Positions 176 through 15,616 of a stretch of DNA of 17,201 nucleotides are shown one piece after another. The number at the start of each line of letters is the position of its first letter. The stretch's first letter is position 1. The stretch spans positions 1-17,201 of the forward strand of contig JBDRUH010000029.1 in the NCBI GenBank assembly GCA_039801225.1, in the 5' to 3' direction. Under the pieces are notes generated by a model, which had not been told where the DNA came from, searched no databases, and saw only the letters and a list, made by a program, of their open reading frames with translations. Source of the DNA: a candidate division WOR-3 bacterium. Lineage in GTDB: Bacteria; Hydrothermota; Tepidihabitantia; Tepidihabitantales; Tepidihabitantaceae. The position numbers and the translations under genes were made by a program.

Positions 176-1855
176 ATGAAGAAATTTTTGATAATCGTTA
201 GTTTATTAACTCTTCCCCTCTTTGCCCAGGAAAATCGGTTAATCAAGATAATGGAAAGGGAGTTGTGGCGCTCCTTTAATGGGCTAAAGAATGCCGGCAA
301 GGAACCCTTATATTTTTTACAATATGAGGTAATTGAGGAGGAGGAACTCAACATTTCTGCCTTTAACGGCGCGATAGAGAATACCGAACACAACCGAAAC
401 CGTTATCTCACCGTTGATGTAAGGGTGGGCAATTATAAGTTGGACAATACTCATCAACTCCGGGGAAAATACGGCTCCAGCGGATTTGATTTTTACACAC
501 CTTCTTATGAACTGATTCCCTTGGAAGATGATGAATTTTCCATCCGGGAGGTTCTCTGGAAAAGAACCGATGAGGAGTTTAAAAAGGCGCAAGAGCGGAT
601 TATCAAAGTAAAGGCGGAGAGGGAAACCAAGGTTTTGGAGACGGACACCTCTCCCGACTTTTCTTCTGCCGAGAAGCAGGTTGATATTGGCGATAGGGCA
701 ACGCTATCGGTTGATACCCTCAGTTGGGTAGGACGGTTAAAAGAGTTGTCAAAGGTTTTTAAGGAGTATCCTTGGATTTACTCTTCGGTTGTTGGCTTAA
801 CGGCAAGGGCGGTTACCAAATATCTGGTCAATACCGATGGAACAAAGATTGTTGAGGGCAACACTAAGTATTATCTCCGGGTGAATGCGTCTACCAAGGC
901 GGAGGATGGTATGGAGTTATTTCTTTACCGTCATTTCTATTCCCACTCTCCTGCAGGGCTGCCTTCGGATGAAAAGATAAAGTCAACCATAGCGGGTTTA
1001 ATCAGTGATTTGGACCTTTTGCGCAAGGCGCCCCTGGTTGACCCGTACAGTGGACCGGCAATATTGAAGAATCGTGCTGCCGGGGTATTTTTCCATGAGA
1101 TATTTGGTCACCGGATTGAAGGGCATCGCCAGAAACTGGAAAGGGAAGGGCAGACATTTAAGGATAAGGTTGGGAAAAAGATTTTGCCGGAGTTCATATC
1201 AATTTACGACGACCCGACTCAAGAGAGTTATGGTAATAAAGATTTGAACGGTCATTATAAATATGATGATGAGGGTGTAAAGGCACAACGGGTTACTGTG
1301 GTAGATAACGGTGTGTTAAAAAACTTTCTTACCACCCGCTCACCTATTGAAGGTTTTCCCCGTTCCAATGGGCACGGACGAAGGCAATATGGATATAAAG
1401 TTGTTGCCCGGCAGGGAAATTTAATTGTGGAGTCTAAGAATCGTGTCTCCCCTGACAGTTTGCGCAAGATGCTGATTGAGGAGTGTAAGAGGCAGAATAA
1501 GCCCTACGGTTTGATTTTTGAAGATATCGCGGGCGGTTTTACGATGACCGGTCGGGGTGGTTTACAGGCGTTTAATGTTACACCGTTACTGGTGAAGCGG
1601 GTATATACCGATGGTCGGGAAGAGGTGGTGAGGGGGGTAAATATTGTTGGCACACCGTTGATTGCCTTCTCCAAAATCTTAGCCACTGGCGACGACCCGG
1701 ATGTATTCAATGGCACCTGTGGTGCTGAATCTGGTGCCGTGCCGGTTTCCGGAGTATCGCCCTCAATCTTAACCGGTGAAATGGAGGTGGAGAAGAAGGT
1801 AAAGGAACAGGAAAAGTTACCGATTCTGCCTTCACCAATAGGAGGTAAGCGATGA
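176..1855 (+). CDS. tldD: TldD/PmbA family metalloprotease, catalytic TldD-like subunit, with predicted signal peptide
   Basis: 559 aa. HExxxH motif FFHEIFGHRIEG, YDDEGV, SNGHGR, RQGNL, and a C-terminal Cys in GTCGAESG as the probable third metal ligand. N-terminus MKKFLIIVSLLTLPLFA-QE looks like a Sec signal. Confidence 0.88.
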   Translation: MKKFLIIVSLLTLPLFAQENRLIKIMERELWRSFNGLKNAGKEPLYFLQYEVIEEEELNISAFNGAIENTEHNRNRYLTVDVRVGNYKLDNTHQLRGKYGSSGFDFYTPSYELIPLEDDEFSIREVLWKRTDEEFKKAQERIIKVKAERETKVLETDTSPDFSSAEKQVDIGDRATLSVDTLSWVGRLKELSKVFKEYPWIYSSVVGLTARAVTKYLVNTDGTKIVEGNTKYYLRVNASTKAEDGMELFLYRHFYSHSPAGLPSDEKIKSTIAGLISDLDLLRKAPLVDPYSGPAILKNRAAGVFFHEIFGHRIEGHRQKLEREGQTFKDKVGKKILPEFISIYDDPTQESYGNKDLNGHYKYDDEGVKAQRVTVVDNGVLKNFLTTRSPIEGFPRSNGHGRRQYGYKVVARQGNLIVESKNRVSPDSLRKMLIEECKRQNKPYGLIFEDIAGGFTMTGRGGLQAFNVTPLLVKRVYTDGREEVVRGVNIVGTPLIAFSKILATGDDPDVFNGTCGAESGAVPVSGVSPSILTGEMEVEKKVKEQEKLPILPSPIGGKR

Positions 1856-3648
1856 AGAGGAAATTGCCCAATGTTACTATAGTTATTGCGGTTTTATTTT
1901 CTGTTTTCTTTACGACGGCCCTTCATTCGCAGGATTTGCCGGTATTGCGGGCAATGGAGGATGAGTTACAAAGGACAATGAAGAACCTGAAATTGGGAAA
2001 GGAAAAACCGCCCTATTATGTTGCCTATAGAGTTGATGATGAGGAGAAAATAACCATTTCCGGTCGTTTTGGGGCAATTGTTGAAGATGGGTTAAATAGA
2101 GAGCGGAAACTTTATGTTGACCTGCGGGTGGGCGATTACGATTTTGACAACGCCAACTTTGTGCCGATGTCAGATTATGGTTTTAGTTTCGGCGCCGGTG
2201 ATAATGCGGTTCAATTACCATTAGATGACGATTACGATGCCATCCGGCAGAAGATTTGGCTGGCGACAGATGAAAGATACAAAGAGGCGATTGATGTCCT
2301 TTTCAGAAAAAAATCTTTTCTGGCACATAAGGAGATTACCGAGAAAATTCCTGATTTTTCCCAATCAACCTCCTATGTGATGATTGCTGAGCCGCAGAAA
2401 TTAAAGGTTGACCGAGTTTCCTGGTTAAAAAATATTCGGGAGATATCAAGCCTGTTCCGGCAATACCCCAAAATTCAGACATCAAAGGTTTTTTTCTCGG
2501 TGAGGCGCTTAACAAGGTATTTTATTGACTCCGAAGGAAATAAGCAAATTACCAACTCTTCTATCGTTCGTATAGAAGCCTGGGCAAGCACCCGGACCAA
2601 AACCGGTGCCGAGGTTAAAAATGCGGTTAATATTCTTGCCCCGACGCCAGAAGATTTACCGCCGATTAGTGCAATTATGAACCGGATTAAGGCGATGGCT
2701 GAGACATTGTCCTATTACACTGAGGCAAAAGAGGAAAAGGATTATACCGGACCGGTTCTTTTTGACGGCAGCGCCGCAGGGCAACTTTTCTATCAACTCT
2801 TTGGTAAAGGGGTGTCCGATACAAGAAAGCCGTTATACGAACAGGAAGGGATGTCGGAAATGGTTGAAGACAAGACCGGCTTTCTCGCCGATAGGTTGGA
2901 GAAGTTGGTTCTGCCCAAGGAGTTCTCAGTTGAGGACGACCCAACATTAACCAAGTTTAATAACATCCCGCTCATCGGTGGTTATTTAATAGATGACGAA
3001 GGTGTTAGAGCCGAGAGGATTGAGCTGGTAAAGGCGGGGAGGTTGGTCAGTTTACCGGTGAGCCGGAGGCCGACCAAGGAGATTAAAAAATCTAACGGTC
3101 ATGGCCGATATTTCAATGGAACGGTACGCAGTTATATCAGCAACCTGATTGTCCAAAGCGAAAAGACAACTCTGGACCTGGAAAAAGAGTTAATCGCCCT
3201 GTGTAAAGACAATGACCTTGAGTATGGAATTGTTATTACTCAACTTGCCACTTCTTTACCGAAAACAACCGAGGAGATGGTTGAAGAGATTTACTCCTAT
3301 TTTGGTGGCAGTAAGACTGAAATACCCCTACTTAATGCCCCTTTAATCGCCTATAAACTCTATACCGATGGCAGAAAGGAGCTGATTAGAGGATTAAAAT
3401 TTGAGGGGGTTACGCCAGCGGTGTTAAAGGATATAGTTGCGGTGGGCAGGATAATGAATGTCCATAACGCCATAATTCAAGAAAGGTTTGGTAGTGGTTA
3501 TCTGCCAATTTCGGTTGTTGCCCCCTCGGTGATAGTTCAAAAGATGACACTGACTGGTAAAGAGGAGAAGGCGAAAAAGCCACCATTTTTACCCCATCCC
3601 TATTTCGGGAAAATTGATTTTATCGGCGCGGTTTTGCCCAATAGGTAG
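1852..3648 (+). CDS. TldD/PmbA family protein, non-catalytic TldE/PmbA-like subunit, with predicted signal peptide
   Basis: 598 aa paralog of the upstream gene (shared DLRVGDY, YTGPVL, DDPT, IDDEGV, SNGHGR, YTDGRKELIRG). The HExxxH position reads FYQLFG and the Cys ligand is absent. ATGA overlap with tldD and SD GGAGG upstream. Confidence 0.85.
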   Translation: MKRKLPNVTIVIAVLFSVFFTTALHSQDLPVLRAMEDELQRTMKNLKLGKEKPPYYVAYRVDDEEKITISGRFGAIVEDGLNRERKLYVDLRVGDYDFDNANFVPMSDYGFSFGAGDNAVQLPLDDDYDAIRQKIWLATDERYKEAIDVLFRKKSFLAHKEITEKIPDFSQSTSYVMIAEPQKLKVDRVSWLKNIREISSLFRQYPKIQTSKVFFSVRRLTRYFIDSEGNKQITNSSIVRIEAWASTRTKTGAEVKNAVNILAPTPEDLPPISAIMNRIKAMAETLSYYTEAKEEKDYTGPVLFDGSAAGQLFYQLFGKGVSDTRKPLYEQEGMSEMVEDKTGFLADRLEKLVLPKEFSVEDDPTLTKFNNIPLIGGYLIDDEGVRAERIELVKAGRLVSLPVSRRPTKEIKKSNGHGRYFNGTVRSYISNLIVQSEKTTLDLEKELIALCKDNDLEYGIVITQLATSLPKTTEEMVEEIYSYFGGSKTEIPLLNAPLIAYKLYTDGRKELIRGLKFEGVTPAVLKDIVAVGRIMNVHNAIIQERFGSGYLPISVVAPSVIVQKMTLTGKEEKAKKPPFLPHPYFGKIDFIGAVLPNR

Positions 3649-7040: not shown

Positions 7041-9980
7041 CTATCTTATTCGGACTGTTTTCCCCCAGGTTTCGCCAGTCGGCGTCCAGACGCGATAGAA
7101 GTAAATACCCCGGGGAACTAAGGTGTTAGTTTCATCCCGACCATCCCAAATAAAATCCGCTTGACCAGCAACCGGTTTTGTCTTTGCTAAATTCCTTATT
7201 AGCCGACCGGTATTGTCATATATTTGGAGACGGACAACGCTCGGCTGAGTTAAGAAAATGGTGAGGTTTGTTTGGGAGGTGAATGGATTCGGCTGGGCAG
7301 AGGTTCGCAGCGTCCGGCTTTCATTAAAAGTTAAAGGCGGGGTTTCATCAATTCCCACATTCATATTAAATCCGACCACTTTCATAATCTGGTTGTTATA
7401 CCCGGAGGAGTATTGCATAATTGTTATCCAGTAAGAGCCATCTCTTGGGTCGTATTCAATCCCCCGCAGGTTCCATTCGGTATTGGGAAACCGGTATTGT
7501 TTACGGAGAGTTCCGGTTATTCGGTCAATTTCCTGCATTGCGCAGGAATCAAAATATGTGCCCGCCGCATCAAACCAGGTAAATATATTTAAAAGCGAAG
7601 GGGTGTTAGTTTGACAGTGGTAGTCAAGCGCCAAACATCTCGTGCCGTAATAACCACTGACCGGATGGATAATGGTGTCAAGAATATTGCCCAGTGTGTC
7701 ATAGACAAAAATCCGCTGTTGATTTGTTGTCCGCCGGTCGCTCAGATAAATTTTATGGCTCTCTTCGTGTTCCACCACCCCGCAGGGGTATTCGGGCTGA
7801 GGTGTGTTGAAGTAACGGACAACCGTTCCCGTTGGGGTAATTTTATAAACCCGTTTAGATGGGTTGGCAACAAGCCAGAAGGTATTGTCATAGGAACAGT
7901 AGGAGATATCGGTGCAGGAGTCTTCGGGTAGCGAGACCGTTCCCTGTAACTGAAGTAAGCTATCCGAAGTGTACTTATAGGCTAAAGCGCTCATAAAGTA
8001 GACGCAGTAGATCAGGTTGTCCTGTTGGTTGTAGGCGACGCCGTAAAGTCCCCAGTCACTTGGCATTCCCGGACAGGGCTTTGGTCCCCAGATAATAGTT
8101 CCGGGTTGAGGTGGAGGTGTGCCAATGGTGAGAAGGATGCGAATTTTTGTTGAGTAGTCGGCACTTTCACCCTGGACAAATAACGAGCAGGGTATTATTG
8201 TACCCGGTGGAATTGAACCGGATGCGGAAAGGGCAATTGGGTCGGCGAAATTGGTCGTCTCCTTTCCCGAGGGGATATTACCCCAACTGCCGATTGAATC
8301 GGTTACGGTCAGTCTGTTATCGGTGGAGCGGAATACACCAACAATGTTATTACAGCCAGCACCGCCTGAGTTACGCAGGGTTATCAACAACCGGGCATTC
8401 TCACCCGGGTCAATCTTGCCGTTATTATTACCGCCAGGCGGAGAGTCATTGACGGTTACTTTTCTTAATACGATGAGAGGTCCGCCGGAACCGGTAACAT
8501 AATTAACCGCGGCTAAGGCATCAATCCTGCCGGCACCAAAGTCATTATCTTTCCCCGGTGCTCCAAGGTCTACCGCAGTTACTTCTAAAATTGAATCCAC
8601 CACCGCCGGGGTTAAATCCGGATTTTTAGAAAGCATGAGACAGACCGTCCCGGCAACATGGGGTGTTGCCATTGATGTCCCTTCGTTATCGTAATAGCCA
8701 CCGCCAATTTTACAGGATTTTATTGCCACACCGGGCGCGCTCATATCCGGTCGGGTCAATCCAGGTGGATAGGCATAGTCGTTATAAGGAGAAACATTCT
8801 GCCAGGTTACCGGCCCCTGACTGGAAAAGTCGGCGATGGAGTCAAGGGAATCGGTTGCGCCAATTGACATTATTCCTGAGAGCGTCCCTTCGCCGGTGTT
8901 TTCGGGATTCCACCAGGGTGGCGGCACATTTCCAGGGCAGCGGCAGGAGTTCGGAGGAGAGAGGTAGCGTTCATTACCAGCCGCGACAACTTGGATTAAA
9001 CCGGCGGCATTCACATTGTCGGCTGCCTGGCGCCAGGTCGCCTGATGAGGACTCCAAGAGATTTGCCAACCTAAGGACATAGTATAAAGGTCAGCACCGT
9101 TATTTGGTGATAAGGGCGGTGAGACGCAAAATTCCATCGCCTGCCAGCATTGGCTTTCGGCGACTGAATCTGCCACGGTCCGCACCCGGCAGACCATCAG
9201 TTGAGCATCAGGGGCAACACCGCACTGCGTTCCGCTGGTGCCATCGCTGGCTACTGTGCCAGCGGTGTGGGTGCCATGACCATTTTCGTCCATCGGGTCG
9301 TTGTTATTTTCTTCAAAGTTCCAGCCATGATGGGGATAGTTAGGGTCGGTCCACAGATGGTCAGACAGGTCTGGGTGGGTGTAATCACAGCCGGTATCAA
9401 TATGACCGCAGACAACTCCTGCGCCAGTAAAACCCTGCGCCCATACCTCGGGTGCTTTAATTTTATTTACCCCCCAAGTAATCTCCTCACCTCCGTTTTC
9501 ACAATCCTTTCCTGGTTCTAATAGGTCAGGGCAGTATGCTAAATCGTAGTTGACATAGTAAACTTCTTCTCTTTCGCTAATCTCTTGAATAACCGCAGGT
9601 GTTGCTTCACAGTATATCGCATTCACAATCCATAAGGGGCGGATATCGGCAACTCCGCCGGATGATGTCCGGGATTGGAGAAATTCCAATAGATTTGTCT
9701 GTTCCCGAGTGGAAAAATCTTTTAAAATCTGGGCAACCTTTACCCGCCGTTCGCGTCGTGAGAGTCCTTTGACTAATACACTTAACGACTCCTTGTCAAA
9801 CTGATTCTTCAAGACGATATGGATGGGCAAGCGCTGATTACTCTCGGCGGTAGTTAGGTGCTTTTTTAGTTCAGGCGTAATTAGTCCGCCCAGTGGCTCG
9901 TTATAAGATTCAAATAGTTGATTCGGGAAAATTGCTCCTATGAGCATTACTGAAATTATCAAAGCGGCTCTTTTTATCAT
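7041..9980 (-). CDS. Secreted multidomain S8 (subtilisin-like) serine peptidase with C-terminal FlgD-Ig/T9SS-type domain
   Basis: 979 aa. Catalytic triad HIDTG / NGHGTHTAGT / GTSMATPHVAG, oxyanion AAGNE, signal peptide and propeptide. C-terminal PNPFT...IYDNTGRLIRNL...WDGRD...GIYF. SD GGAGAGG. Confidence 0.93.
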   Translation of the reverse strand: MIKRAALIISVMLIGAIFPNQLFESYNEPLGGLITPELKKHLTTAESNQRLPIHIVLKNQFDKESLSVLVKGLSRRERRVKVAQILKDFSTREQTNLLEFLQSRTSSGGVADIRPLWIVNAIYCEATPAVIQEISEREEVYYVNYDLAYCPDLLEPGKDCENGGEEITWGVNKIKAPEVWAQGFTGAGVVCGHIDTGCDYTHPDLSDHLWTDPNYPHHGWNFEENNNDPMDENGHGTHTAGTVASDGTSGTQCGVAPDAQLMVCRVRTVADSVAESQCWQAMEFCVSPPLSPNNGADLYTMSLGWQISWSPHQATWRQAADNVNAAGLIQVVAAGNERYLSPPNSCRCPGNVPPPWWNPENTGEGTLSGIMSIGATDSLDSIADFSSQGPVTWQNVSPYNDYAYPPGLTRPDMSAPGVAIKSCKIGGGYYDNEGTSMATPHVAGTVCLMLSKNPDLTPAVVDSILEVTAVDLGAPGKDNDFGAGRIDALAAVNYVTGSGGPLIVLRKVTVNDSPPGGNNNGKIDPGENARLLITLRNSGGAGCNNIVGVFRSTDNRLTVTDSIGSWGNIPSGKETTNFADPIALSASGSIPPGTIIPCSLFVQGESADYSTKIRILLTIGTPPPQPGTIIWGPKPCPGMPSDWGLYGVAYNQQDNLIYCVYFMSALAYKYTSDSLLQLQGTVSLPEDSCTDISYCSYDNTFWLVANPSKRVYKITPTGTVVRYFNTPQPEYPCGVVEHEESHKIYLSDRRTTNQQRIFVYDTLGNILDTIIHPVSGYYGTRCLALDYHCQTNTPSLLNIFTWFDAAGTYFDSCAMQEIDRITGTLRKQYRFPNTEWNLRGIEYDPRDGSYWITIMQYSSGYNNQIMKVVGFNMNVGIDETPPLTFNESRTLRTSAQPNPFTSQTNLTIFLTQPSVVRLQIYDNTGRLIRNLAKTKPVAGQADFIWDGRDETNTLVPRGIYFYRVWTPTGETWGKTVRIR

Positions 9981-10214: not shown

Positions 10215-10856
10215 ATGAAGAAAAAGCTGTTTGTGATACTTATACTTGGCGCAGTGGCGGTTTTTGTCAGTTGCAACCTTTTTGGCGGCGGTAAAGAGGA
10301 TTACTATCCGACAACTGTCGGCAGCAAATGGGACTATTCAGGCTATGTCCTGCGAAGCACCGCAACCGACGCCACACCGGATACGATTGAAAAGATAAAT
10401 GTTACCGTAAGGGCAACCAAAAGGGATAAACTTAATACGGGCGAAGATGTAACCGAAATGGTTTCAACTATGGATGTCCATATTTACTACCCTATGGACA
10501 CTACCTATACAGGAGTTGATACCAGCTACATCCGCGAGACCGAAAATGCGGTTCTGGAGTATGGTAGTAAAAGCGAAATAGAGCCCGACACCATCCTTGC
10601 CCTTCCTCTAACAAAAGATAAAACCTGGAGTAATGATTCTTACAAAGTGATCGACCAGGAGAATGTTACGGTTCCTGCTGGTACTTACAAGAAAGCTTGG
10701 AAGATAGAGCATACGACAACCGAGGGTGGTGAAACCTATAAAGAATACTACTGGTTCGCCAATAACATCGGGCTGGCAAAAGTCTTCTGGCAGCAGTCCT
10801 ATGGCACCGACTTGATAACCTTTACTATCGAACTGGTCTCAGCCTCTATTAAATAA
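10215..10856 (+). CDS. Hypothetical lipoprotein, beta-strand rich
   Basis: MKKK + hydrophobic stretch + FVSC lipobox, YYPTTVGSKWDY, C-terminal ENVTVPAGTY...WFANNIGLAK motif, strong SD. Confidence 0.8.
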   Translation: MKKKLFVILILGAVAVFVSCNLFGGGKEDYYPTTVGSKWDYSGYVLRSTATDATPDTIEKINVTVRATKRDKLNTGEDVTEMVSTMDVHIYYPMDTTYTGVDTSYIRETENAVLEYGSKSEIEPDTILALPLTKDKTWSNDSYKVIDQENVTVPAGTYKKAWKIEHTTTEGGETYKEYYWFANNIGLAKVFWQQSYGTDLITFTIELVSASIK

Positions 10857-10880
10857 TAACCTTCTCATCTCAACCTCCTT

Positions 10881-10912
10881 ACGGGCGGCACATCCCGCCG
10901 CCCGTTCTTTTT
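10881..10912 (+). terminator. Rho-independent terminator
   Basis: 9-bp stem ACGGGCGGC/GCCGCCCGT with a 7-nt loop, followed by TCTTTTT, about 25 nt after the lipoprotein stop. Confidence 0.88.
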
Positions 10913-11036
10913 GCTCTCGTTTAGTCATGAGAACCTCAGAACCCATAACTCATCCCCTATAAATTACCCGCTGAAAACCCAATGCAAGACAAACCTTTAG
11001 GTCTGTATTCTAACCTTTTTGATTTTTAAATTTTTC

Positions 11037-11065
11037 TTGACATGTGAACAATCGTTCACTATAAT
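11037..11065 (+). promoter_or_regulatory. Perfect-consensus sigma70 promoter of the lexA-polymerase cassette (TTGACA-N17-TATAAT)
   Basis: TTGACA at 11037-11042, TATAAT at 11060-11065, 17-bp spacer. Confidence 0.88.
11044..11059. promoter_or_regulatory. Putative SOS box / LexA operator GTGAAC-AATC-GTTCAC
   Basis: Perfect 6-bp inverted repeat with a 4-bp spacer. It contains the GAAC-N4-GTTC core of the Firmicutes/Actinobacteria LexA box and lies between -35 and -10 of a lexA-like gene. Confidence 0.82.
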
Positions 11066-11071
11066 TGACCT

Positions 11072-11656
11072 ATGCGTAAGAAAACGGAATTAAGAGAACG
11101 GGCAGAAGAGATTTCACGGTTTTATCAGGAGAGACGGCGGATGCCTTCGTATTCAGAAATCGCCGGTCTGTTTGGCTGGCGTTCTAAGAATGCGGTCTTC
11201 CGTTTGGTAACAAAACTGGAACACCTTGGTCTGATTGCCCGGGATAATAAGGGTAGGCTCATTCCCAAAACAGTTATCAATCCGTTAAAGGTTTTGGGCA
11301 CGGTTGAAGCCGGGTTTCCCTCACCGGCTGAGGAGGAACTCTTAGACAAAATCTCACTTGACCAGTGGCTGATAAGTAACCCTAATGCCGCTTTTCTTTT
11401 GAAGGTTACCGGTGACTCAATGTCCGGTGCTGGAATTCTACCCGGAGATATGGTTTTAGTTGATCGTTCTTTGGTACCCAAAAATGGCGATATTGTCATT
11501 GCTGAGGTTGATGGCGAGTGGACGATGAAGTATTTCTTCCGGAAAGGCGGTATGGTAGTTTTGCATCCAGCAAATCCGAAATATCAGCCAATAAAACCAA
11601 ATGATGAGTTGAAAGTCGGTGGGGTGGTTACCGCAGTGATCAGGAGATATCGATGA
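11072..11656 (+). CDS. lexA: LexA-family repressor (winged HTH + S24 peptidase) with UmuD-like cleavage loop
   Basis: 194 aa. wHTH MPSYSEIAGLFGWRSKNAVFRLVTKLEHLGLI, Ala-Gly site VEAGFPSPAEE, catalytic Ser in VTGDSM and Lys in WTMKY. Confidence 0.88.
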   Translation: MRKKTELRERAEEISRFYQERRRMPSYSEIAGLFGWRSKNAVFRLVTKLEHLGLIARDNKGRLIPKTVINPLKVLGTVEAGFPSPAEEELLDKISLDQWLISNPNAAFLLKVTGDSMSGAGILPGDMVLVDRSLVPKNGDIVIAEVDGEWTMKYFFRKGGMVVLHPANPKYQPIKPNDELKVGGVVTAVIRRYR

Positions 11657-12897
11657 GCAATCAACCATTAATAATTTTTGACTGGCATAATGCGATAATG
11701 CATATTGATGCCGACGCCTTTTTTGTTGCCTGCGAACAGGCGACTAACCCCAGACTTTTAGGCAAACCGGTGGTGGTAGGTAAGGAGAGGGGAATTGTTA
11801 CCGCAGCAAGTTATGAAGCAAAGGAATTAGGTGTAAAGAGGGGGATGAGAATCTGGGAGGTGAAAAGACTCTGTCCGGAGACGATTGTCATTAACTCCGA
11901 TTACGAGAAATACAGCCTATTTTCAATGCGGATGATGGCAATCCTTAGAGGTCTTTCTCCGCTGGTTGAGGAATACTCAATTGATGAAGCATTTGTTGAT
12001 ATAACCGGTCTCAGGCGTTACTATCGCTGTTCTTACGAGGAACTTGGTCGCCGGGTGAAGGAGAGGATTAAAAAGGAACTGGGTATATCGGTATCGGTCG
12101 GCATCAGCCTTACCAAAGTTCTGGCGAAAATTGCCTCCCGGCACAAAAAGCCGGATGGTTTGACCGTAATTCCGGGTAGACAGGTTCATCGTTATCTAAA
12201 GAGCCTGCCGGTTGAAGAGGTGTGGGGCATTGGACATAATACCGCTGCCTGGTGTGCAAAATTGGGCATCAGAACTGCGCTGGAGTTTGCCCGTAAGCCC
12301 GAGGATTTTGTCCGGCGTAACTTCGCTAAACCATTATATGAGATATGGCAGGAGTTGAATGGCAAACAGGTGTATTTGGTCTCTCCTGACCCCAAAACCA
12401 GTTACAAATCCATCAGTAAAGTCCAGACCTTTTCACCGACTGCGGACCGGTTTACTGTTTACGCTCATCTCAACGCCAATCTTGACGACGCCTGCTTCAA
12501 AGCCCGGCGCTGGCAACTGGTACCTCAGCGACTCATTCTATTTTTACGGACTCAGGACTATCAGGAAAGGGCGATAGAATTGAAACTTACCTCTCCCTGT
12601 GCCTATCCCTTGATGCTCAGCCCTTTTGTCCAGAAGGGTTTTGAAGAGATTTTTCAGCCCGGGGTGGCTTATCGCCAAACCGGTGTCGTCCTTACCCACC
12701 TAATTTCGTCCCGAAATATTCAGTTTTCCCTCTTTGAAGACCCGGTGAAACTAAAGAGAATAGAACGATTATATCAGGCGGTTGACAGCCTTAAGATAAA
12801 ATTGGGGGATGAGGTATTGACCAACGGGCTGTGTTGCCAACGTTCTTTTAAAGAGAATCGTTTAAAAATTCCGTTGATGAATATAAACTTGAGGTAA
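11653..12897 (+). CDS. dinB: Y-family translesion DNA polymerase (DinB/UmuC-like)
   Basis: 414 aa. HIDADAFF, ASYEAK..GV..GM, YSIDEAF, SVGIS.TKVLAKIAS..KPDG, VWGIG, little-finger domain, and clamp-binding-like QFSLF. ATGA overlap with lexA. The family is secure; dinB versus umuC is not. Confidence 0.88.
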   Translation: MSNQPLIIFDWHNAIMHIDADAFFVACEQATNPRLLGKPVVVGKERGIVTAASYEAKELGVKRGMRIWEVKRLCPETIVINSDYEKYSLFSMRMMAILRGLSPLVEEYSIDEAFVDITGLRRYYRCSYEELGRRVKERIKKELGISVSVGISLTKVLAKIASRHKKPDGLTVIPGRQVHRYLKSLPVEEVWGIGHNTAAWCAKLGIRTALEFARKPEDFVRRNFAKPLYEIWQELNGKQVYLVSPDPKTSYKSISKVQTFSPTADRFTVYAHLNANLDDACFKARRWQLVPQRLILFLRTQDYQERAIELKLTSPCAYPLMLSPFVQKGFEEIFQPGVAYRQTGVVLTHLISSRNIQFSLFEDPVKLKRIERLYQAVDSLKIKLGDEVLTNGLCCQRSFKENRLKIPLMNINLR

Positions 12898-13006
12898 TTT
12901 CGTTAGAAAAAGCCAACCGATAGGGTGTGGTTGTTTAAGATTGAAGACCGCAACAGACTTAAAAGGTAAAGGTGACAAAATTTTCCGCCCGCAAAATAAT
13001 AAGCCC

Positions 13007-13034
13007 TTGACCTGAAAATGAGTCTAACTATAAT
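13007..13034 (+). promoter_or_regulatory. Putative sigma70-type promoter of the C-N hydrolase operon (TTGACC-N16-TATAAT)
   Basis: TTGACC at 13007-13012, TATAAT at 13029-13034; ATG at 13044 with no SD in between. Confidence 0.7.
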
Positions 13035-13043
13035 TTTCTCCTT

Positions 13044-13832
13044 ATGGTAGTCGGAGTTTTCCAGTTTGCGCCCAAACCAAAGGCAATTGAAGAGAATCTT
13101 ACCCGTATAATCAGACGGCTCACCGATATTAAAGCCGACCTGGTTGTTCTCCCTGAATTGTGCCTGACTGGCTATATGTTTTCTTCCCGGGAAGAGGTTT
13201 GTAAGTATGCCCAGAAGGTTCCTGACGGTCCGGTCCTTTCTGTGCTTTTGGATTTCTGCTCTCGGCGTAACATGAACCTTGTTCTCGGCATTCCAGAATT
13301 GGCTGAAAATAGAGTATTCAATTCGGCAATTTTATTAACCGCCACAGGTAATATCCACCTGTATCGCAAGGTTCACCTCTTTGGTGACGAAAAAGAGCTG
13401 TTTGACCCGGGTGACCTACCCTTCCCGGTTTTCCAAATAGATGGAGTAAAAATTGGTATGCTGGTATGTTTTGATTATTTTTTCCCGGAAGGTGCTCGCA
13501 GTCTGGCGTTGCGCGGCGCTCAGATTGTCTGCCATCCAGCAAATTTAATTCTCAAATACGCCCAGACGATGACAATTACCCGCTCTCTGGAAAACCGCGT
13601 TTTCTGGCTTCTTGCCAATCGCATCGGCACAGAAGAACTGAATGGTAAACAGTTGAGTTTTACCGGGGAAAGTCAAATTGTTGCCCCGGATGGGAGTCTA
13701 CTTGTTCGGGCTCAACCGGATGTTGAAGAACTGCTGCTGGTAGATATAAATCCGCTTCAAGCGTTGGATAAAAATGTGACCCCAAAGAACGATATTATCG
13801 CCAACCGGCGACCCGAACTCTACTATCGTTAG
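13044..13832 (+). CDS. Nitrilase-superfamily carbon-nitrogen hydrolase
   Basis: Glu-Lys-Cys triad motifs VLPEL, YRKVHLF and LVCFD; also ENRV..LLANRIG, GESQIVAPDG and RRPELY. Confidence 0.92.
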   Translation: MVVGVFQFAPKPKAIEENLTRIIRRLTDIKADLVVLPELCLTGYMFSSREEVCKYAQKVPDGPVLSVLLDFCSRRNMNLVLGIPELAENRVFNSAILLTATGNIHLYRKVHLFGDEKELFDPGDLPFPVFQIDGVKIGMLVCFDYFFPEGARSLALRGAQIVCHPANLILKYAQTMTITRSLENRVFWLLANRIGTEELNGKQLSFTGESQIVAPDGSLLVRAQPDVEELLLVDINPLQALDKNVTPKNDIIANRRPELYYR

Positions 13833-14416: not shown

Positions 14417-14985
14417 TGGAATTGAAGGAAATTCTTACCTGGCATTTTACTCGTTACCCTTTACTTCAAGCCGAAGATATTATTAAACTAATCTATCAAG
14501 GTGTTTTTGGACCCGGGCATCTCGTAAATAAGCGAGAGTCGTTTCGGGAAGTTGAGGAAAGATTAAAAAACGAGTTTGCCCGCCTCACTCCGCCGTCGGC
14601 TGTCAGCTGTCGCCCGGAATCGGGCGCCCGATTTGGGCGGCTGTTGGCCGGTAGTGAGGAAACCGAGCCTGTTGATCCTGACGGGTTACTGGTGCGGGTT
14701 AATTTAGCACCGATCGCCAATTCTCAGACACATCAGGTTTTACTCCAAAAAGCACTGAAGGAAACAATAAAGACCTTTACTCCTAACCCTTCACTTTTTC
14801 TACCTCGGATTGAACTGGCTCAAGAATGGTGCGAAAGATACCTGCCTAGCCAAAAAGAACGGTTGAAACTTTTAGAGGAGAACCTTAATTTCCCGCCTTC
14901 CCACTCCGAGATTTACCTGCAAACATACCGACCGGCTTACCGCGTTGTCCTCTTCCGGTTGTGGGTTTCCCCACACCGCATCTAA
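14416..14985 (+). CDS. Conserved hypothetical protein
   Basis: 189 aa, translationally coupled. Motif-like segments RYP....EDIIKLIYQGVFGPGHL, LVRVNL and HSEIY...YRPAYRVV. Confidence 0.75.
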   Translation: MELKEILTWHFTRYPLLQAEDIIKLIYQGVFGPGHLVNKRESFREVEERLKNEFARLTPPSAVSCRPESGARFGRLLAGSEETEPVDPDGLLVRVNLAPIANSQTHQVLLQKALKETIKTFTPNPSLFLPRIELAQEWCERYLPSQKERLKLLEENLNFPPSHSEIYLQTYRPAYRVVLFRLWVSPHRI

Positions 14986-15616
14986 GACAGAAATTTTTTA
15001 TCGGGCAGTCTTCACATTTCGGTCTTTTAGGTAAACAAACCGTCTGACCAAAAGCGACCAGCACTTTATTACACTCTACCCAGATGTGTTTAGGCAAAAT
15101 TTTCTGCAACTTTCTTTCGGTCTCCTCTGGTCGTTGTGAACTAACTAATCCCAGTCGGTTAAATATGCGGTGGACATGGATGTCAACTGCAATCGCTGGA
15201 ATACCAAACCCTTGGGAAAGAACTATGTTGGCAACCTTTCTGCCTACCCCGGGTAACCGGACAAGCCGCTTAAAGATATTAGGCACTTTGCCATTCTCCT
15301 CATCAATAATTATTTTTGCCAATCGGGGTAAAACCTGCGCCTTCTTTTTGTAAAACCCAACTGGATATATAAGTTTCATTACCTCTTTGGGGTTAAGTTT
15401 AGCCAGTGTCTGTGGGTCTGGTGCCCGGCAAAATAGTCGTTTTATCACTTCAGTGGTAACCCGGTCCTGAGTTCGGGTGGACAGGACCGCGCTAACTAAC
15501 ACCTGCCAGGGCTCATTTCGGGGCATCTTCTTCACGGGGGCTGACAGTTCCGGGTAAATCTTTTGTAAACGGCGAAAGATCAACTGAACTTTCTGATGCT
15601 TACTCTTAATTGTCAA
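14885..15616 (-). CDS. nth: Endonuclease III (HhH-GPD DNA glycosylase/AP lyase, 4Fe-4S)
   Basis: LVSAVLSTRTQD, IYPVGFY..KA, HhH LPGVGRKVAN, AVDIHVHR, and C-X6-C-X2-C-X5-C (CLPKRPKCEDCPIKNFC). The TTG start is uncertain. Confidence 0.93.
   Translation of the reverse strand: MTIKSKHQKVQLIFRRLQKIYPELSAPVKKMPRNEPWQVLVSAVLSTRTQDRVTTEVIKRLFCRAPDPQTLAKLNPKEVMKLIYPVGFYKKKAQVLPRLAKIIIDEENGKVPNIFKRLVRLPGVGRKVANIVLSQGFGIPAIAVDIHVHRIFNRLGLVSSQRPEETERKLQKILPKHIWVECNKVLVAFGQTVCLPKRPKCEDCPIKNFCLRCGVGKPTTGRGQRGKPVGMFAGKSRSGKAGN

Follow-up and report, generated by a model that had tools for sequence, protein, structure and literature searches.

A putatively self-repressing LexA-polymerase cassette in a candidate division WOR-3 bacterium, whose cleaved repressor may also serve as a UmuD'-like polymerase subunit

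Could a single protein silence an error-prone polymerase operon and then, once it has cut itself, supply a subunit to the polymerase that it had kept silent? This question is raised by a two-gene cassette found in a stretch of 17,201 nucleotides (nt), referred to below as the window, which is contig C29 of a 1.50-Mb genome in 72 contigs (88.8% complete) and was named as candidate division WOR-3 by its best protein matches. The cassette encodes a LexA-fold protein of 194 amino acids (aa; P0001) and a Y-family DNA polymerase of 414 aa (P0002). All elements that a sequence-only reading had picked out here were present at the positions listed below, and that observation is confirmed. With a rough probability of 0.5, the cassette is an autoregulated leaderless module whose cleaved repressor fragment also serves as a UmuD'-like subunit of the polymerase; the subunit role is indirectly supported by a Caldimicrobium form of the protein, an invariant arm behind the cleavage site, a conserved polymerase tail and, weakly, a complex prediction. 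The features of the cassette are the following.

11037..11042, + strand: -35 hexamer TTGACA, conserved in related loci
11044..11059, + strand: operator palindrome GTGAAC-AATC-GTTCAC (core GAAC-N4-GTTC), inside the promoter spacer
11060..11065, + strand: -10 hexamer TATAAT, 6 nt before the start codon
11072..11656, + strand: repressor gene, 194-aa LexA-fold protein with a UmuD-scoring S24 domain (P0001; open reading frame, Pfam, NCBIfam, structure)
11072..11269, + strand: N-terminal winged helix-turn-helix, residues 1 to about 66 (structure model, Foldseek, TIGR00498 match from residue 14)
11309..11353, + strand: predicted Ala80-Gly81 self-cleavage site and arm GFPSPAEEELLDK, the prospective new N-terminus (conservation; cleavage as in the family)
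11417..11419, + strand: codon of Ser116, predicted nucleophile as in the S24 family (G114, S116 and M117 invariant)
11528..11530, + strand: codon of Lys153, predicted general base as in the S24 family (W150, T151 and K153 invariant)
11642..11656, + strand: ribosome-binding site AGGAG in the end of the first gene, and ATGA stop/start overlap (11653-11656)
11653..12897, + strand: Y-family DNA polymerase gene, 414 aa (P0002; IMS domains, catalytic D19, D111 and E112 conserved)
12721..12735, + strand: QFSLF, residues 357-361, putative beta-clamp-binding-type motif (aligns with Q..LF of UmuC and other polymerases)
12757..12828, + strand: RecA-N-terminus-like motif, residues 369-392, ...RLYQAVDSLKIKLGDEVLTNG (aligned with UmuC and other PolY; G385 invariant)
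12856..12894, + strand: conserved extreme C-terminal tail, residues 402-414, ...RLKIPLMNINLR (L404 and P407 at least 90% conserved)

P0001, whose translation contains ...GTVEAGFPSPAEE..., was modelled by AlphaFold2 (predicted local distance difference test, pLDDT, 75.3) as three helices and a beta hairpin (residues 2-65; helices 2-21, 27-34 and 39-51, strands 55-57 and 63-65), followed by an S24 barrel, with a low-confidence linker at residues 68-94; Pfam Peptidase_S24 covers residues 74-186. The full-length model aligned in Foldseek to LexA 3k2z (E 2.6e-14) and to the LexA-DNA complex 3jso (2.4e-13), which bears out the proposal that a LexA-type winged helix-turn-helix is joined here to an S24 domain. 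In an alignment of 24 family members, A80, G81, F82, E87, S116 and K153 were invariant, and P83, S84 and L90 were conserved in at least 90% of the sequences. Downstream of the cleavage site the arm reads GFPSPAEE, and the motif contrast that had first drawn attention to it was reproduced in fetched sequences, with QCGFPSPA in E. coli UmuD versus VAAGEP in E. coli LexA. The presence of a LexA-type DNA-binding domain, an Ala-Gly site, a Ser/Lys dyad and a GFPSPA arm in one polypeptide thus gives a protein of hybrid features.

The hybrid character was also reflected by curated models. Whole proteins were scanned with two NCBIfam models, the LexA equivalog TIGR00498 (cut-off 110.95 bits) and the UmuD subfamily model NF007621 (cut-off 110 bits), and P0001 exceeded both cut-offs, with 124.4 bits over residues 14-192 and 122.2 bits over residues 79-191, respectively. 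The three sets of proteins compared gave the following scores.

Canonical LexAs (n = 11; E. coli, Streptomyces, a clostridial species, two Nitrospirota and six of the window's phylum): LexA model 158.6-289.5 bits; UmuD model 67.9-91.7 bits, none above the cut-off
Classical UmuDs (n = 3; E. coli, Kiloniella and one genome of the window's phylum): LexA model 82.9-97.3 bits, all three below the cut-off; UmuD model 162.1-171.5 bits
Cassette-type proteins (n = 6; the window, two family relatives, and Nitrospirota, Verrucomicrobiota and Patescibacteria members): LexA model 119.5-128.8 bits; UmuD model 113.8-127.9 bits, six of six above the cut-off

The description of P0001 as a LexA/UmuD hybrid is therefore upheld by both models, each of which separates the canonical proteins of the other kind. 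Among PDB sequences, the best match of P0001 was UmuD 8gmt (82.4 bits, residues 76-193), tied by a full-length Thermotoga LexA (82.1 bits), and the C-domain chains of E. coli LexA gave 57.9-62.6 bits. By these scores, the UmuD likeness of P0001 is real, not exclusive. Canonical-length LexAs from one genus of the window's phylum (L096, L099, L102 and L106-L108) read VSAGFPIPAIEE and are partly UmuD-arm-like; no polymerase was seen in the 1.5-kb flanks of these genes, and the one protein scanned reached 91.7 bits on the UmuD model, the top of the canonical set. A 212-aa "S24 family peptidase" with a LexA-like N-terminal part, encoded on a Comamonas plasmid (L163, 2453-3873), was below both the LexA and the UmuD cut-offs, and its gene overlaps a phage Gp37/Gp68-family gene, not a polymerase.

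Phylogenetic placement was examined in a maximum likelihood tree of 60 S24 C-domains, with rows chosen by the authors from the loci collected and with lambda CI, on a very long branch, as the only outgroup. The 18 canonical LexA C-domains formed a clade (97/95) that did not include the cassette proteins, so the grouping with canonical LexA that would have spoken against a hybrid was not observed; the cassette proteins and the short Caldimicrobium forms lay together on one side of a branch (93/47). The cassette domain did not fall inside classical UmuD either, and it is placed by this tree as a third lineage, with a provisional deep position, beside canonical LexA and classical UmuD.

Evidence for regulation comes from the region upstream of the repressor gene. 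TTGACA, a 17-nt spacer and TATAAT form a promoter with a 12/12 consensus, the sole perfect match in 10700-13200, and the operator palindrome occupies its spacer; we take the GAAC-N4-GTTC core to be the Bacillus-type LexA motif (Gram-positive-type LexA box, Cheo box). Upstream of related lexA genes, this core was exact in 32 of 34 loci and had one mismatch in the other two, always within the spacer of a TTGACA/TATAAT-type promoter, and it was also exact in four of four further family relatives. The -10 hexamer is separated from an in-frame start by exactly 6 nt in 27 of 35 loci (window included), and the start at 11072 has no ribosome-binding site, suggesting that the mRNA of the cassette is probably leaderless. 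The public gene call for the repressor is only 171 aa long (P0003; 100% identity, 88% query coverage), as the gene caller apparently started at Met24 and missed the leaderless start, probably because the true start is leaderless and lacks a ribosome-binding site. Since the operator and the leaderless promoter are conserved across related loci, autorepression by putative binding to this operator is well supported, in agreement with the self-repression that had been proposed. In addition, the recurrence of the same arrangement of promoter, operator and gene in 34 other loci from several phyla indicates that the observation is not due to chance.

The regulon appears to be very small. The perfect 16-mer operator occurs once in the 1.5-Mb genome, and of the 32 sites that differ from it at one or two positions, most fall within long open reading frames. 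GAAC-N4-GTTC was found 25 times genome-wide versus about 23 expected, showing no enrichment that would point to a wider regulon, and only at the cassette itself does the box stand in promoter position. A multi-gene SOS regulon that includes recA, which is a hallmark of LexA, was thus not found here with a strict motif in an 88.8%-complete genome, and no box was present within 300 nt of recA in two cassette-bearing relatives that each have a single S24 protein. The window's genome has a single S24 match and a single Y-family match; a second, canonical lexA, the presence of which had been suggested as a check, was not found in it. The cassette looks self-contained, and the module seems to be the entire LexA regulon of this genome. 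In this genome, 88.8% complete, no match to RecA exceeded the Pfam cut-off, probably owing to an assembly gap, since 17 of 21 genomes of the window's family have RecA. RecA was also not found over the Pfam cut-off in G076, a 96%-complete cassette-bearing relative.

The second gene is tightly coupled to the first: AGGAG lies 7 nt upstream of the polymerase start, and the 4-nt gene overlap is also present in loci L004, L005 and L007. P0002 matched the Pfam domains IMS (166 bits), IMS_C (42.4 bits) and IMS_HHH (26.6 bits), and D19, D111 and E112 were invariant in 24 polymerase sequences, from which residues the enzyme is predicted to be catalytically intact. The expected ATGA-coupled Y-family polymerase with QFSLF and a C-terminal tail was accordingly recovered in full. 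P0002 was under every NCBIfam cut-off, with all nine DinB models failing (the best at 230 versus 381 bits) and with 173.7 bits on the UmuC model versus a cut-off of 431. A quick tree of 44 polymerase sequences, built with no outgroup, contained three groups, namely the enzymes adjoining canonical LexAs together with E. coli DinB (98), the UmuCs adjoining short UmuDs (100), and the cassette and Caldimicrobium polymerases (97). P0002 belongs by this tree to a distinct Y-family clade, in neither the UmuC nor the DinB clade, and such an unrooted three-group tree does not rank the clade as nearer to one or the other.

The C-terminal part of the polymerase is of particular relevance to a possible small subunit. 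Q357 and F361 of the clamp motif were invariant in the 24 sequences. The following RecA-N-terminus-like motif, a concept taken from the relevant section of PMC6511836, was called by eye from the alignment and not with a model, and the stretch is comparable with the RecA N-terminus of a relative. The tail carries LYQAVDSLKIKLG, and its hydrophobic end resembles the end of UmuC in an alignment in which E. coli DinB ends at the clamp motif. According to the sections of PMC6511836 on this subject, a conserved tail follows the RecA-N-terminus-like motif in those polymerases that have a small subunit (UmuC; YqjW, UvrX); in UmuC this tail serves as the principal site for UmuD', and UmuD' without its arm fails to support mutagenesis. 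The order of clamp motif, RecA-N-terminus-like motif and conserved C-tail described there is what alignment and family conservation indicate for P0002. In the model presented in the relevant part of PMC11791011, the last four UmuC residues pair with UmuD', and the conserved UmuD' arm reaches the active site. Four of five aligned polymerases linked to canonical LexA (L127, L124, L130 and L128) end in a ..S-P-S-W-R-P-type motif, which aligns with an S-P-R-Y-T-T-R stretch of UmuC.

The most informative relatives are found in Caldimicrobium and a related Thermodesulfobacteriaceae metagenome-assembled genome (MAG), where nine loci encode a 127-aa protein that consists of the S24 domain only. This form is 52-57% identical to residues 75-194 of P0001, keeps the Ser/Lys dyad, and starts about 11 residues before Ala-Gly, which is followed by FPSQ. 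Its gene lies 9-13 nt before a polymerase gene whose product is 52-56% identical to P0002, and the pair is located directly behind metK-ahcY, with no operator box or promoter of its own found at the pair. In six of six Caldimicrobium-type genomes searched, the 127-aa protein was the only S24 match. As judged from a median ratio of nonsynonymous to synonymous substitution rates (dN/dS) of 0.053 in the 13 of 36 pairs with finite dS (synonymous sites being saturated in the others), the short protein is under purifying selection. The Caldimicrobium sequences are nested inside the cassette group in both the S24 and the polymerase trees, which is most simply explained by loss of the DNA-binding domain. 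The retention by selection of an S24 domain of this lineage where repression is impossible is the best argument that the domain would have a polymerase-linked role.

A complex of the polymerase with two copies of P0001 residues 81-194 was predicted from alignments of 24 rows each. The score was 0.36 (0.36, 0.42 and 0.34 in separate runs) and the best of three controls scored 0.01; partner pLDDT was at least 77, and the runs shared at least 73% of contacts. Of 157 solved complexes, 116 reached the pass mark, as did 2 of 215 mismatched pairs; among those that passed, 18 solved complexes and both mismatches scored 0.60 or less, and this weak band is where the cassette complex falls; the calibration is only rough for this case, in which the alignments were made by the authors and one chain is present in two copies. 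No UmuC-named chain was among the 60 PDB matches listed for the polymerase, and a pass owed to the predictor's memory of a solved Pol V, although possible, is not evident. The predicted complex weakly suggests that the cleaved fragment may bind the polymerase. A literature search found no description of a LexA C-terminal fragment as a polymerase subunit.

Based on these data, a four-step mechanism can be proposed. A dimer of the 194-aa LexA-fold protein would bind GTGAAC-N4-GTTCAC in the spacer of its own promoter and silence both genes, as comparison of the loci strongly suggests. RecA on single-stranded DNA would then trigger self-cleavage between Ala80 and Gly81 by Ser116/Lys153, which are invariant residues with such a function in the family, and, again as in the family, the DNA-binding domain would be released and the operon derepressed. 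The polymerase would be translated by coupling at the ATGA overlap and may act at stalled forks through QFSLF and its RecA-N-terminus-like motif. Finally, the C-terminal fragment, with the arm GFPSPAEEEL first, would stay with the polymerase as a UmuD'-like subunit via the polymerase tail, in which case one cut would both induce and complete the enzyme; this last step is the least certain and stands at about even odds.

How widely the two genes travel together bears on any such partnership. A protein homology search with P0001 found at least 120 clusters (64-100% identity); those with names are labelled LexA, and their sources are WOR-3, Nitrospirota and Thermodesulfovibrionales. In species-representative genomes, 35 loci with a near-full-length cassette-type LexA (51-82% identity) were identified, the hosts being Nitrospirota, Verrucomicrobiota, Kiritimatiellae, Lentisphaerales, Patescibacteria, a "Bacteroidales" MAG and other bacteria. 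Similar lexA-polymerase pairs had been expected elsewhere, and according to the survey of flanking DNA 25 of the 35 loci are followed on the same strand by a P0002-type polymerase (40-80% identity), one of these polymerases being split and six clipped by the end of the flanking DNA. Ten loci had no polymerase in the flank. Whole genomes were searched for five of them: in three, the polymerase follows on the lexA contig at a distance of about 4.6 kb (one copy broken by an in-frame TGA), and one had it on a contig numbered differently from the lexA contig. Four of the other five loci had less than 2.6 kb of downstream DNA. Between the two genes, Nitrospirota loci carry toxin-antitoxin-like genes (recognised by inspection), a gene for a pyrimidine-dimer DNA glycosylase and, as a weak match, an IS200/Y1 transposase-like gene; these inserts are diverse, and no ImuB-C-like gene, as there is in Geobacter, was found among them. 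The lexA-polymerase gap is an insertion hot spot at loci L010, L012, L014, L015, L020, L006, L024 and L031, and the gap of about 4.6 kb recurs in three genomes.

Some hosts carry both kinds of LexA. Two Nitrospirota genomes have, besides the cassette, a canonical LexA (203 and 205 aa, VAAG.P) encoded downstream of a DinB-like polymerase. In one of them, G002, a second promoter comprises TTGACA, TGAAC-N4-GTTCA (C7:62581-62594) in the spacer and TATAAT, with a start about 7 nt later, and precedes a small open reading frame (weak DUF6504 match, 19.3 bits versus a cut-off of 24.2), the DinB-like polymerase and the canonical lexA, implying that the two LexAs of this genome may share one box. By comparison, the cassette protein is the sole S24 protein in one WOR-3-like and one Verrucomicrobiota genome.

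Within the window's phylum, an S24 protein was found in 88 of 121 sampled genomes, and the 29 S24 loci inspected comprised 24 canonical LexA-like, four classical UmuD and one atypical locus. The cassette type (E at most 1e-30) was present in five of the 121 genomes, all belonging to three genera of the window's family, and four other genera of this family carry a canonical lexA-polymerase pair. Cassette identity to copies from other phyla is 62-67%, and the flanks differ among family members, the only shared flank consisting of weak matches (26-30% identity) to one beta-propeller gene (L004, L159 and L160). The differing flanks and the identity to other phyla suggest horizontal acquisition, and it is probable from these comparisons that the cassette was acquired by the window's lineage in this way, replacing a canonical lexA-polY pair. 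No plasmid relative of at least 60% identity was found among the best 5000 of 72,556 records. Two decaying copies were seen: in L026 (4598-5916) the polymerase is split into frames of 129 and 251 aa, and in G138:C5:342154-343327 a polymerase with an in-frame TGA lies beside a LexA that matches only residues 3-182.

It is quite possible that the cassette is a plain lexA-polY operon, in which P0001, as a diverged paralogue of LexA or a substitute for it, is a self-cleaving repressor only and the polymerase acts unaided or together with RecA and the clamp; GFPSPA and the score on the UmuD model would then reflect ancestry or a surface for cleavage or RecA docking, and no polymerase interface. P0001 does exceed the cut-off of the LexA equivalog and folds like LexA over its whole length, and a lexA gene beside a Y-family polymerase is common, including the canonical LexAs of the same phylum and of Nitrospirota. 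The account of polY operons in PMC6511836 includes ones with lexA, among which the Geobacter operon is transcribed as one unit. Besides the weak band of the complex score, a number of observations weigh against the subunit role. The LexA C-domain chains of M. tuberculosis (74-78 bits) come near UmuD' as matches of P0001, and the arm motif is not exclusive, a canonical LexA group of the same phylum reading AGFPIPA. Phylogeny fails to join the cassette domain with UmuD, as classical UmuDs group weakly (64/13) with the cassette domain outside, and an approximately unbiased test rejects neither cassette+UmuD (p = 0.65) nor cassette+LexA (p = 0.27). The cassette polymerases stand apart from the UmuC clade, and the DinB-like polymerases adjoining canonical LexA also have a RecA-like stretch and a conserved end, albeit with a different motif. 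Inserts of up to about 4.6 kb between the genes are tolerated, unrelated genes being often inserted there in Nitrospirota, and the last of the five genomes searched has the LexA with no cassette-type polymerase (best polymerase only 34% identical). The strictness of the regulon motif and the lack of a RecA match in the incomplete genome count against the proposed module as a whole. The closest precedent points in this direction too: the part of PMC4807011 that deals with UmuDAb reports that it failed to complement an E. coli umuD mutant (a heterologous test) and judges it purely regulatory, so that this partial precedent for a UmuD-like repressor showed no UmuD function. In the sections of PMC12926913 on mutasome types, PolY-RecA with no small subunit is the most abundant predicted type, and many PolY with a RecA-N-terminus-like motif are predicted to act with RecA alone; the word LexA is absent from its main text. 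However, a plain lexA-polY operon leaves unexplained why, in six Caldimicrobium-type genomes that have no LexA, purifying selection maintains an S24-only protein whose dyad is intact beside a polymerase of the same clade, with no operator, why the stretch after the cleavage site is invariant across phyla, and why the UmuD cut-off is passed by all six cassette proteins versus none of the 11 canonical LexAs. The dual role raised by the sequence-only reading is supported indirectly by the short derivative, the arm and the tail, and weakly by the complex prediction.

A physical partnership could also work in the opposite direction, with the S24 domain acting as a brake, so that the uncleaved protein or the fragment holds the enzyme inactive or limits its errors. 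In E. coli, such a restraint on polymerases is ascribed to intact UmuD, and the comparative evidence for a partnership applies equally to a brake, as it does not indicate the direction of the effect; activation and inhibition are not distinguished by the data, yet the Caldimicrobium form has only about 11 residues before Ala-Gly, and a long inhibitory N-terminal part is thus unneeded there. We regard such a brake as unlikely. Even less probable is that the cassette arrived recently by transfer, or is decaying or selfish, and does nothing for its host, so that its conservation would reflect its spread: the patchy occurrence in one family, the resemblance to copies of other phyla with differing flanks and the broken copies would fit it, but both genes of the window are intact with all catalytic residues present, they are the sole LexA-type and the sole Y-family gene of their genome, and neither a close plasmid relative within the records mentioned nor an integrase or transposase beside the cassette in the window was found.

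The closest kinds of known systems are UmuDAb/umuC, umuDC and lexA-polY operons. Like P0001, the Acinetobacter protein UmuDAb has a UmuD-like C-domain and an N-terminal LexA-like helix-turn-helix (HTH), and its gene is sometimes in an umuDAb-umuC operon. As described in parts of PMC4807011 and PMC8565304, UmuDAb self-cleaves after damage and represses itself and error-prone polymerase genes, having a minimal regulon. UmuDAb clusters with the UmuD proteins of Moraxellaceae, and its corepressor is DdrR. P0001 shows the same architecture, with a UmuD-like C-domain, an added HTH and its own operator, at which repression is likely. Unlike UmuDAb, which was compared by description only, P0001 has an N-domain that is recognisably LexA (TIGR00498 pass, full-length LexA alignment), its operator, a GAAC-N4-GTTC palindrome, lies within the spacer of a sigma-70 promoter, its polymerase is outside the UmuC clade, and its family occurs in several phyla.

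E. coli umuDC (DNA polymerase V, UmuD'2C-RecA) resembles the cassette in the tight coupling of an S24 gene followed by a polymerase, in the G-F-P-S-P-A arm after the cleavage site, in the Ser/Lys dyad and in the UmuD cut-off reached by P0001; P0002 in turn shares with UmuC a Q..LF clamp motif, a RecA-N-terminus-like motif and a hydrophobic extreme C-terminus. By contrast, P0001 has a DNA-binding domain, which its 127-aa Caldimicrobium relatives lack, and is probably its own repressor. It scores 122 bits on the UmuD model versus 162-171 for classical UmuDs and has Ala-Gly at the cleavage site where E. coli UmuD has Cys-Gly, and P0002 forms a separate clade far below the UmuC cut-off (173.7 versus 431 bits). 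Canonical lexA-polY operons of the same phylum and Nitrospirota, as well as Geobacter lexA-imuB-C-polY, likewise place LexA and a Y-family polymerase in one damage-inducible unit, and the second lexA operon of G002 even has a promoter of the same build. The 11 canonical LexAs of the comparison all fail the UmuD cut-off, however, and the polymerases of such operons belong to the DinB-like clade; the two genes of the cassette are not separated by an ImuB-C gene, unlike in Geobacter. The Gram-positive-type LexA box occurs in a promoter of the window's genome only at the cassette. The lexA2-imuA-imuB-dnaE2 "adaptive mutagenesis cassette" is another dispersed, LexA-linked mutagenesis cassette, from which the present one differs in having two genes only, with a Y-family polymerase of predicted active type and with no imuA, imuB or dnaE2. 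That cassette is also mentioned in the relevant part of PMC6511836.

The surroundings of the cassette in the window support its delimitation at the 5' side, where one further feature was detected.

10881..10905, + strand: intrinsic-terminator-like hairpin followed by a T run (9-pair stem with 8 GC pairs, T-rich tail), closing the upstream gene

This hairpin marks the 5' border of the two-gene module. After the polymerase gene, no terminator-like site was found in a scan of the window; the next gene encodes a CN-hydrolase and has a promoter-like site of its own at 13007-13034. An endonuclease III-type glycosylase is encoded on the opposite strand at 14885-15616, about 2 kb downstream of the cassette. 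Elsewhere in the window, a tandem TldD/PmbA-like gene pair is located at 176-3648, and a 979-aa S8 subtilase with a C-terminal FlgD-Ig-like domain at 7041-9980.

If the cleaved fragment is indeed a polymerase subunit, induction and activation would be tied to one proteolytic event in one polypeptide, which would be the most compact SOS mutagenesis circuit described and would suggest a concrete path, open to testing, by which UmuD could have arisen from LexA. A tentative extension is that the family may represent a living intermediate between LexA and UmuD, in which one RecA-triggered cut derepresses the operon and yields the activating subunit of its polymerase, and from which UmuD-type subunits arise by loss of the DNA-binding domain, as in Caldimicrobium, where the winged helix-turn-helix and the operator would have been lost together, with the S24 half retained beside the polymerase. 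The family provides natural controls for these ideas, namely the full-length forms, the Nitrospirota forms beside a canonical LexA and the S24-only forms of Caldimicrobium. Whether the subunit role is right or wrong, there stand a multi-phylum LexA lineage with a near-invariant leaderless promoter-operator and a putative one-operon regulon, and a distinct clade of Y-family polymerases. Both results would fit the view, expressed in parts of PMC8565304, that S24 repressors have repeatedly specialised in silencing error-prone polymerases.

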